Assembly (NCBI RefSeq): GCF_030013205.1
Contig: NZ_CP122648.1
Direction: 5' to 3' (one strand)
DNA: 64,000 bases
Source of the DNA: Escherichia coli
GTDB taxonomy: Bacteria; Pseudomonadota; Gammaproteobacteria; Enterobacterales; Enterobacteriaceae
This document shows positions 28,624 through 38,153 of the stretch, piece after piece; position 1 is the stretch's first letter; each line of letters opens with the position of its first letter. The position numbers and the translations under genes are program-made. Under the pieces are notes generated by a model. That model did no database searches. It was not told where the DNA came from and worked only from the letters and a program-made list of their open reading frames with translations.

Positions 28624-29348
28624 GTAAAAGCCGCTTAACGGTGTTTAGTTTCATTCGCCGTTTTCTTCTGCGGTTAATGGTTGTCCTCGCCGTTTTCTGG
28701 GGCGGGGGCATTGCGTTGTTTAGCGTTGCGCCTGTTCCTTTCTCTGCGGTAATGGTCGAGCGGCAAGTCAGCGCCTGGCTGCATGGCAATTTTCGTTACG
28801 TGGCACATTCTGACTGGGTCAACATGGATCAAATCTCGCCGTGGATGGGACTGGCGGTGATTGCCGCAGAAGATCAGAAGTTTCCTGAGCACTGGGGCTT
28901 TGATGTCGCTTCCATTGAGCAAGCCCTGGCGCACAACGAACGCAATGAAAACCGTATTCGCGGTGCGTCGACGATTTCTCAGCAGACAGCCAAAAATCTC
29001 TTTTTATGGGATGGGCGCAGCTGGGTTCGAAAAGGGCTGGAAGCCGGATTAACGCTGGGGATAGAAACTGTCTGGAGCAAAAAGCGTATCCTGACGGTTT
29101 ACCTGAATATCGCCGAATTTGGCGACGGTGTGTTTGGCGTCGAAGCTGCGGCACAACGTTATTTCCACAAACCCGCGAGCAAACTTACCCGCTCGGAAGC
29201 TGCATTACTGGCTGCTGTATTACCTAATCCACTTCGTTTCAAAGTCTCCGCGCCATCGGGCTACGTGCGTAGCCGTCAGGCGTGGATTTTACGGCAGATG
29301 TATCAGTTAGGCGGTGAGTCGTTTATGCAACAGCACCAGCTGGATTAA
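28620..29348 (+). CDS. mtgA: monofunctional peptidoglycan glycosyltransferase
   Basis: 242 aa [29 protein letters not shown]...; start overlaps the elbB stop. Confidence 0.95.
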
Positions 29349-29977
29349 GCTTCGCGCGAAGTGAGGGCCAGCGTTTTGCTCTCACGAGGTTGCAGATCTT
29401 TCTGCAGGGCAATAGCCAGCGCCGGTTGGGCGATAAATCGTTTCCATAACCGCTCTTGCTTACGCAGACAACACCACTTCGACCAGGTCGCCAGTGGAAT
29501 CAATGTGCTTTCACCAATGTTGTCGCAGACGACGGGGATAACCTCTGACTCACTGATGCGGTGACAGAGGATATTCTGCGGCTTCAGCGACATCGTCACG
29601 ATACGGTTATCCTGCAAATAACGCTTCAGCTGTTTCAGTAGCTGGCGCAGTTGTGCAATGTCTTCTTCGTAACGGCATTGTTCAGCAAATTCGGTCAGCG
29701 TAATGGAGGGTTTGCCGTCAAAATCTGCAATCACATCGTAGACATAACCGGTTCCGCAATCCGTCTCAACGGTACCGTGATAGCGCGGTATTCCACTCCA
29801 GTCTTTTAACCGACGACCAAGATGCGCGTAGTACTTTAACTCACGGCGGATCTCTTTATCGCCACCATCGCCACGATGGTAGACAATCTTGATACAGCGT
29901 TGGGCATCTTCCGGATGCGCATAACATTTCCGATGTCTTCCGGTGCCCAGGGGACTTTGTTCAGATAAGCGAATCAT
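29345..29977 (-). CDS. yrbL: PhoP-regulated protein YrbL
   Basis: 210 aa from [28 protein letters not shown] (internal ATG; track ORF starts at an upstream TTG). Confidence 0.9.
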
Positions 29978-30027
29978 GCCATCTCCTGGAAATATTTTCT
30001 GACGATCTCCAGTATGGTCGATTAACT

Positions 30028-30044
30028 TAAACAAAACCTAAACA
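30028..30044 (-). promoter_or_regulatory. PhoP box upstream of yrbL
   Basis: minus-strand TGTTTA-GGTTT-TGTTTA direct repeat about 50-65 bp upstream of the yrbL ATG; matches the (T/G)GTTTA-N5-(T/G)GTTTA consensus. Confidence 0.7.
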
Positions 30045-30189
30045 ATGCCTCTTAAGGTTTTCTTAAGGTTCTTCTGAAAGTGAAAAGCGCACAAAATGTA
30101 CAAATGACGTTGATTGAGAACGATTTCAGTACGCGCTTTTCTTATTGCCGGAGGAGCTTGAAGGGATTTGAATGTCAAAGTGATGAAGA

Positions 30190-30462
30190 TTAATCTTCAT
30201 CAAAACCAGAGTTAAAGAGGGCGATAACGGCGGCCAGTGCTTCCTCTTCCTGTGGACCGGTCGCTTCAACTTCAATCTGCCGTCCTTTGGCAGAATCCAA
30301 CATCAGCAGCGCAATAACGCTGTTGGCTTCAGCCTCGGTGCCTTCGTCATTACGTAACAGCACTTCAGCGTCAAAACCCTGCATTAATTCAAACAGCTTC
30401 ATTGCAGGCCGGGCATGCATGCCCAGCTTGTTTGTGATTTCAACAGTTTGCTTGACGGTCAT
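30190..30462 (-). CDS. ptsO: nitrogen-PTS phosphocarrier NPr
   Basis: 90 aa [24 protein letters not shown]...; HPr-like with active-site His. Confidence 0.95.
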
Positions 30463-37175: not shown

Positions 37176-38153
37176 TTATTCAACGAGTATTGGCGATAAC
37201 CAGTACAACATCGCCAGCCATACGATAAATCCGCCAGTTAATAATACCCCTACACCACGGCCCGATTGCGGGGAGCGCCGCCAGCACAGCAACGCAAAAA
37301 TAATGCTCACCAGCAACATCACGCTGTAGTCACGACTGTACGCCAGTGGATCAATCTCTCCTGGCGTTATCAGCGCGGGTAAACCCAACACGATGACAAT
37401 ATTAAAAATGTTTGCGCCAATGATATTTCCGACAGCAATGTCGTTTTCACCTTTGCGAACCCCCGCTATTGCGGTTGCCAGTTCCGGCAGGCTGGTTCCG
37501 ATAGCAATTGCCGTCAGCCCCATCGTCAACTCGCTGATGGCAAAGTAATTCGCCAGCACCGTGGCGTTATCAACCACCATCCGCGTGGCCACTGGCATGA
37601 TGATAAGCGCAATGCCGAGCCATAAAAACGCGACGGGCAATCCACCTTCACGCGGCAGCTCTGCAAGCTGCTCTCTGGTCAGACTGTCAGTCCCCTGACG
37701 TTCAGCCTGACGTGCAAGTTTAACAATGAACAGCAGCCATAGCACAGCCAGAAAGAGGAGAAAGATACCATCGCTGCGACTAAGTTGTCCGTCATAGAGT
37801 ACGGAACCGGCCACCACGCTGACCAACAACATTAAGGGTAATTCACGGCGTAGAACATCAGAATGGACGGTAAAAGGACGAACCAGCGCAGCCAGACCGA
37901 GGATCAGCAATATATTGATAATGTTTGAGCCGAGGGCTGTACCAACGGCTAAATCGCGTTGTTCGTGCAGAGACGCGGCAAGCGAGACGATGATTTCTGG
38001 TAACGATGTACCAATACTGACCACCGTCATGCCGATGATCAGCGGCGGGATGCCAAAGGTTCGGCAAAGAATAGACGCGGCAAAAACCAGGCGGTCGGCA
38101 CTGTAAACGACCAAAAGTAAACCAACAATTAACAGTGCCGTAGCTAAAAGCAT
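37176..38153 (-). CDS. yrbG: CaCA-family cation antiporter YrbG
   Basis: 325 aa polytopic membrane protein MLLATALLIVGLLLVVYSADRL... with duplicated GTSLPE motifs. Confidence 0.92.
   Translation of the reverse strand: MLLATALLIVGLLLVVYSADRLVFAASILCRTFGIPPLIIGMTVVSIGTSLPEIIVSLAASLHEQRDLAVGTALGSNIINILLILGLAALVRPFTVHSDVLRRELPLMLLVSVVAGSVLYDGQLSRSDGIFLLFLAVLWLLFIVKLARQAERQGTDSLTREQLAELPREGGLPVAFLWLGIALIIMPVATRMVVDNATVLANYFAISELTMGLTAIAIGTSLPELATAIAGVRKGENDIAVGNIIGANIFNIVIVLGLPALITPGEIDPLAYSRDYSVMLLVSIIFALLCWRRSPQSGRGVGVLLTGGFIVWLAMLYWLSPILVE

Follow-up and report, generated by a model that had tools for sequence, protein, structure and literature searches.

The direct repeat TGTTTA-GGTTT-TGTTTA at positions 30028-30044 (minus strand) of the analyzed DNA, a 64,000-nt stretch of an Escherichia coli genome that we call the window, is almost certainly the PhoP-binding site of the yrbL promoter, for which class II activation is predicted. 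The yrbL PhoP box is already well characterized, and the finding is correct but ordinary. In this analysis, we observed the anatomy of the promoter, its identity with that of K-12, and the conservation of its sequence and spacing; we rely on the literature for the binding of PhoP, the dependence of yrbL on PhoP, the start site in Salmonella, and repression by PmrA.

Anatomy of the yrbL promoter

Read along the minus strand, the region has the order ...AACCTTAAGAAAACCTTAAGAGGCAT-TGTTTA-GGTTT-TGTTTA-AGTTAATCGAC-CATACT-GGAGATCGTCAGAAAATATTTCCAGGAGATGGC-ATG. The following features were assigned:

30103 to 30084, minus strand: conserved block TTGTACATTTnGTGCnCTTT, at -126 to -107 from the ATG
30051 to 30059 and 30062 to 30070, plus strand: PmrA/BasR box, two CTTAAGGTT units separated by tt, forming an 11-bp direct repeat on the strand opposite to yrbL
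30044 to 30028, minus strand: PhoP box TGTTTA-GGTTT-TGTTTA, at -67 to -51 from the yrbL ATG, overlapping the -35 position
30044 to 30039, minus strand: half-site 1 of the PhoP box, TGTTTA
30038 to 30034, minus strand: internal spacer of the PhoP box, GGTTT
30033 to 30028, minus strand: half-site 2 of the PhoP box, TGTTTA
30016 to 30011, minus strand: -10 hexamer CATACT, 11 nt 3' of the PhoP box; hexamer and gap are as in Salmonella yrbL (PMC3335776)
30003 to 30008, minus strand: predicted start region, by transfer from the Salmonella map (PMC3335776)
29987 to 29983, minus strand: Shine-Dalgarno sequence AGGAG, 5 nt before the ATG, read from the sequence and conserved
29345 to 29977, minus strand: yrbL coding sequence, 210 amino acids plus stop, encoding a PF10707 kinase-like protein

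The initial annotation had described a minus-strand repeat about 50 to 65 bp upstream of the yrbL start codon that matches the PhoP direct-repeat consensus. On reading the sequence, its position proved exact to the base; the box spans -67 to -51 and agrees with the consensus (T/G)GTTTA-N5-(T/G)GTTTA at 12 of 12 specified positions. On both strands of the window, TGTTTA-N5-TGTTTA was found once, compared to 0.01 occurrences expected by chance (100 shuffles). When one mismatch to KGTTTA-N5-KGTTTA was allowed, one extra match was obtained against 0.73 expected. This PhoP-box-like sequence, TGTTAATTGTTGGTTTA (38118-38134, minus strand), lies within the yrbG coding sequence 20 nt past the ATG, encodes a hydrophobic stretch, and is a chance match. 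Genome-wide, a single perfect match is unremarkable, at an estimated 0.7 per 4.6 Mb according to our extrapolation from the window shuffles. It is the position of the box, 11 nt 5' of a near-invariant -10 hexamer, together with its conservation in orthologues, that lifts it above chance level.

The yrbL ATG (29977 to 29975) is the same start as that annotated for K-12 b3207, and the RefSeq product name is "PhoP regulatory network protein YrbL." The locus is annotated as mtgA / yrbL / npr / rapZ, with the gene order of K-12 MG1655. The -35 position is occupied by TAGGTT, which has 2 of 6 consensus matches and is the same as in Salmonella yrbL. When 29800-30300 was scanned with promoter and terminator consensus sequences, neither a complete sigma-70 promoter nor any other match was obtained. 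This outcome is expected of a promoter that depends on an activator, and it provides no independent call of the -35 and -10 elements. An Rfam search of the npr-yrbL intergenic region returned only noise.

For the transcription start in E. coli, two positions can be proposed. By analogy, A30008 would be the counterpart of the S1-mapped Salmonella +1, 2 nt past the -10 hexamer; given the usual 7-nt gap after the -10 hexamer, +1 would be G30003. The Salmonella +1, being just 2 nt past the assigned -10 hexamer, is unusually close to it, which points to a small error in the position of either the start or the hexamer.

Two further observations concern the start region. The elemental pause consensus G-10/Y-1/G+1 has two overlapping matches at the yrbL start on the minus strand (window positions 29970-29985), namely, G29985...T29976|G29975 and G29980...C29971|G29970. 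Studies of RNA polymerase (RNAP) pausing use a "yrbL consensus elemental pause" as a standard model, for which these matches are candidate positions. Directly 3' of the -10 hexamer, there is a GATC (Dam) site (30004-30007), which is present in the window, in K-12, and in three other inspected E. coli strains but absent from the other Escherichia-labelled loci (one of them labelled E. coli) and from the Citrobacter and Salmonella loci that were retrieved. In a preprint, yrbL is listed among the genes mildly upregulated in dam/dcm mutants.

Conservation across orthologues and variation within E. coli

The window and the K-12 MG1655 yrbL promoter are base-for-base identical from -130 to the ATG (100% from -130 to +12), and the window strain departs from K-12 solely beyond this segment, in the intergenic sequence closer to npr. 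Therefore, results obtained with the K-12 yrbL promoter carry over directly. Several E. coli strains from swine match a 1.2-kb stretch containing the locus at 100% identity, and of 5426 complete E. coli genomes, 5425 possess this stretch. The 66-bp core from the PmrA box to +1 (30005-30070) was found in 5409 of these 5426 genomes and is identical to the window in 3123; thus, approximately 42% of the complete E. coli genomes differ from it. In all three variants inspected (E. coli STEC17-183, FDAARGOS_1254, and the ST131 strain 4993), half-site 2 is CGTTTA, and in two of the three, the spacer is GATTT. In strain 4993, an 11-bp deletion additionally merges the two PmrA units into one. A C at the first position of a half-site is tolerated according to the published PhoP submotifs (C/T/G)GTTTA (PMC3335776).

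Orthologous promoters were collected in two ways. A protein-guided scan provided 11 loci, which belong to S. enterica arizonae and to species of Escherichia and Citrobacter. Look-ups of exact proteins extended the set to Salmonella, Siccibacter, Pluralibacter, an Erwinia-labelled isolate, Enterobacter hormaechei, Cedecea, and Superficieibacter, all with yrbL in a rapZ-npr-yrbL-mtgA context. Most of the npr-yrbL spacer could not be aligned; the conserved islands in it are a block of 20 nt, the boxes for PmrA and PhoP, the CATACT hexamer, and the Shine-Dalgarno sequence with the ATG. With the sequences anchored on the -10 hexamer and compared without gaps, mean column identities were as follows:

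-10 hexamer: 0.99 (18 orthologues)
PhoP half-sites: 0.86-0.88
PhoP internal spacer: 0.79
stretches between the elements: 0.49-0.63

The gap between the PhoP box and the -10 hexamer is 11 nt in 18 of the 18 orthologous promoters with a locatable -10 hexamer, which come from Escherichia, Citrobacter, Salmonella, Siccibacter, Superficieibacter, Enterobacter, and the Erwinia-labelled isolate. The box itself is perfect in most Escherichia, reads CGTTTA-N5-(T/C)(G/A)TTTA in Citrobacter and Salmonella, and is degenerate in Siccibacter, Superficieibacter (TGTTGAAGTTCCATTTA), and the Erwinia-labelled isolate (CCATTGAGCCTTTATTTA). In the Pluralibacter yrbL promoter, a weak box-like repeat and no -10 hexamer were seen, and in that of Cedecea, neither box nor -10 hexamer was recognizable.

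The genes for YrbL-family proteins of approximately 50% identity have unrelated genomic surroundings and lack their own promoter; they are therefore uninformative on the PhoP box. Some of these PF10707 homologues, on gut metagenome contigs, are located directly after dnaE, beside genes of the Kdo kinase family, glycosyltransferase genes, and Wzy_C genes; these neighbors hint at LPS/LOS as a possible target of this family of kinase-like proteins. Furthermore, a 420-bp contig of the Tannerella forsythia ATCC 43037 assembly (NZ_JUET01000135.1) is 99% identical to E. coli yrbL and most likely represents E. coli contamination of that assembly.

The 20-nt island TTGTACATTTnGTGCnCTTT precedes the PmrA box, at a distance of 13 nt from the extended repeat and 16 nt from the CTTAAG core. 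It shows no mismatch at 18 specified positions in 12 of 12 Escherichia, Citrobacter, and S. arizonae loci, with two positions being variable and the flanks unalignable, and it is partly retained in Enterobacter, Pluralibacter, Siccibacter, and Superficieibacter. A BLAST search with a 35-mer revealed no other copy in E. coli (single copy at BLAST sensitivity). The block matched no Rfam family and no promoter or terminator consensus, and RNA folding of the npr-yrbL spacer from five species gave no significant or conserved structure. Several candidate functions were rejected. A terminator is unsupported, as the long hairpin of the window is destroyed in K-12. The RstA box TACATNTNGTTACA, with its tandem TACA sites, is fitted by the block in its first half only, with 4 mismatches, and an RstA consensus search allowing three mismatches gave 30 matches in the window compared to 37.6 expected, with none in the yrbL promoter. 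The consensus sequences of MlrA, marbox, CRP, OmpR, TorR, and sigma-54 sites, compared with the block by eye, did not fit it. We tentatively propose that the block could be the site of an undescribed third input to yrbL or a conserved signal of the rpoN operon 3' end and, separately, that the TGTTTA/CGTTTA polymorphism in half-site 2 could tune PhoP sensitivity between lineages.

Control of yrbL by PhoP and PmrA

That yrbL is regulated by PhoPQ, as was initially annotated, is borne out by published data. Salmonella yrbL carries the box TCGTTTAGGTTTTGTTTAA in direct orientation 11 nt 5' of the -10 hexamer CATACT, with the -35 sequence TAGGTT and an 18-nt spacer; it was classed as architecture I and is predicted to be a class II promoter (PMC3335776). 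S1 mapping there revealed a single start site that depends on PhoP and on low Mg2+, and phosphorylated PhoP gave a DNase I footprint on the promoter (PMC3335776). A start at a distance that conflicts with the box would have spoken against this assignment; the start in the Salmonella S1 map does not conflict with it. In Shigella flexneri 301 (Sf301), the 19-nt box tTGTTTAggtttTGTTTAa is exactly that of the window. Phosphorylated PhoP shifted the S. flexneri yrbL promoter fragment carrying tTGTTTAggtttTGTTTAa in an electrophoretic mobility shift assay (EMSA), and deletion of phoPQ decreased the yrbL mRNA level to 0.02 of that of the wild type, a 50-fold drop (PMC5775216). The E. coli yrbL promoter, identical in the window and K-12, responds in reporter assays to induced PhoP, albeit weakly (PMC13215669), and yrbL was reported to be the weakest or least sensitive PhoP target (PMC13215669, PMC4196223).

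The initial annotation overlooked the adjoining PmrA/BasR box, through which a second regulator acts on this promoter. The core of the PmrA/BasR box is located 6 nt upstream of the PhoP box, is inverted in orientation relative to yrbL, and is conserved in the orthologous promoters. CTTAAG-N5-CTTAAG, which satisfies YTTAAK-N5-YTTAAK, has one match in the window compared to 0.13 expected. PhoP and PmrA sites were described in the yrbL promoters of both E. coli and Salmonella, with PmrA repressing yrbL, and for E. coli yrbL, binding by PmrA is reported as well (PMC3335776, PMC2681069, and PMC4196223, citing Zwir 2005). In an evolution study with E. coli B, yrbL was downregulated whenever basR, eptA, and arn were upregulated (PMC13405929), which is consistent with repression by PmrA. 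Repression probably occurs by steric crowding of PhoP or RNAP, as we infer from the arrangement of the sites.

Taken together, these data suggest the following model. When Mg2+ is low or PhoQ receives another signal, phosphorylated PhoP would bind as a dimer, head to tail, to both TGTTTA half-sites. This site, on the strand of the gene and 11 nt 5' of the weak -10 hexamer CATACT, would stand in for the -35 element that the promoter lacks. There, PhoP would recruit RNAP by class II activation, with a contact between the activator and sigma/RNAP, which we infer for this promoter, replacing the -35 contact. Transcription would begin a few nucleotides past the -10 hexamer, resulting in a leader of approximately 26 to 31 nt. 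PmrA/BasR bound to the adjoining repeat of two CTTAAGGTT units, 6 nt upstream, would lower yrbL expression.

Three other explanations of the repeat were considered. The first is that it mainly serves a different OmpR-family regulator (such as PmrA/BasR, RstA, or OmpR), the dependence on PhoP being indirect. A second response regulator does act at the yrbL promoter, and a direct repeat with an approximately 11-bp period is common to all sites of OmpR-family regulators. However, PmrA has its own adjoining CTTAAGGTT repeat, the RstA consensus occurs in the promoter no better than by chance, and phosphorylated PhoP binds directly in vitro (PMC5775216, PMC3335776), which leaves this explanation very improbable. 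We consider it just as improbable that PhoP serves here chiefly as a roadblock or repressor of read-through from the rpoN-hpf-ptsN-rapZ-npr operon and not as an activator. On the same strand, npr ends 145 nt before the box, and a consensus intrinsic terminator was not detected in the interval, but the yrbL mRNA level drops rather than rises without PhoPQ (PMC5775216), and Salmonella yrbL has a single, PhoP-dependent start site (PMC3335776). Finally, a chance repeat in an AT-rich intergenic region, with yrbL controlled from elsewhere, is effectively refuted: a perfect TGTTTA-N5-TGTTTA is indeed expected about once per E. coli-sized genome by extrapolation, and the one-mismatch match at 38118-38134 is clearly due to chance, but the constant 11-nt phasing to an invariant -10 hexamer in 18 orthologues, the half-sites conserved above their flanks, the EMSA with the identical Shigella sequence (PMC5775216), and the Salmonella footprint (PMC3335776) contradict it.

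Comparison with other PhoP-controlled promoters

Within the ancestral PhoP regulon, yrbL is a textbook case, and its PhoP box has been described, footprinted, and used in reporters for approximately twenty years. The value of the present case is that of a positive control, in which a reader without tools placed a real regulatory site to the base. What it adds is the full promoter map with the PmrA box, the PhoP box, and the -10 hexamer, the variation of the core within E. coli, and the conserved upstream block.

The promoter in the window does not differ from those of E. coli K-12, which is the same from -130 to the ATG, and S. flexneri, in which Sf301 has the same 19-nt box. It is also similar to Salmonella enterica yrbL, which has one directly oriented box at 11 nt from CATACT, the poor -35 sequence TAGGTT with the 18-nt spacer, a short leader (PMC3335776), and an adjoining PmrA box approximately 23 to 24 bp upstream. 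In contrast to the window, half-site 1 is CGTTTA instead of TGTTTA in Salmonella, and the leader differs in sequence and, by 1 to 3 nt, in length.

Like yrbL, the canonical PhoP class II promoters mgtA and phoP P1 have a (T/G)GTTTA-N5-(T/G)GTTTA box in direct orientation, which is located approximately one helical turn 5' of the -10 hexamer and replaces the -35 element (PMC3335776). However, they have a 12-nt gap, 7 nt between the -10 hexamer and +1, and no PmrA box, whereas yrbL combines an 11-nt gap with repression by PmrA. The pmrD promoter likewise pairs a PhoP box for activation with a PmrA box for repression (the "bi-fan" motif). In Salmonella pmrD, the distance between the two boxes is approximately 38 bp, with a degenerate submotif as the PhoP box, whereas in yrbL of the window the distance is 23 bp and the box is perfect.
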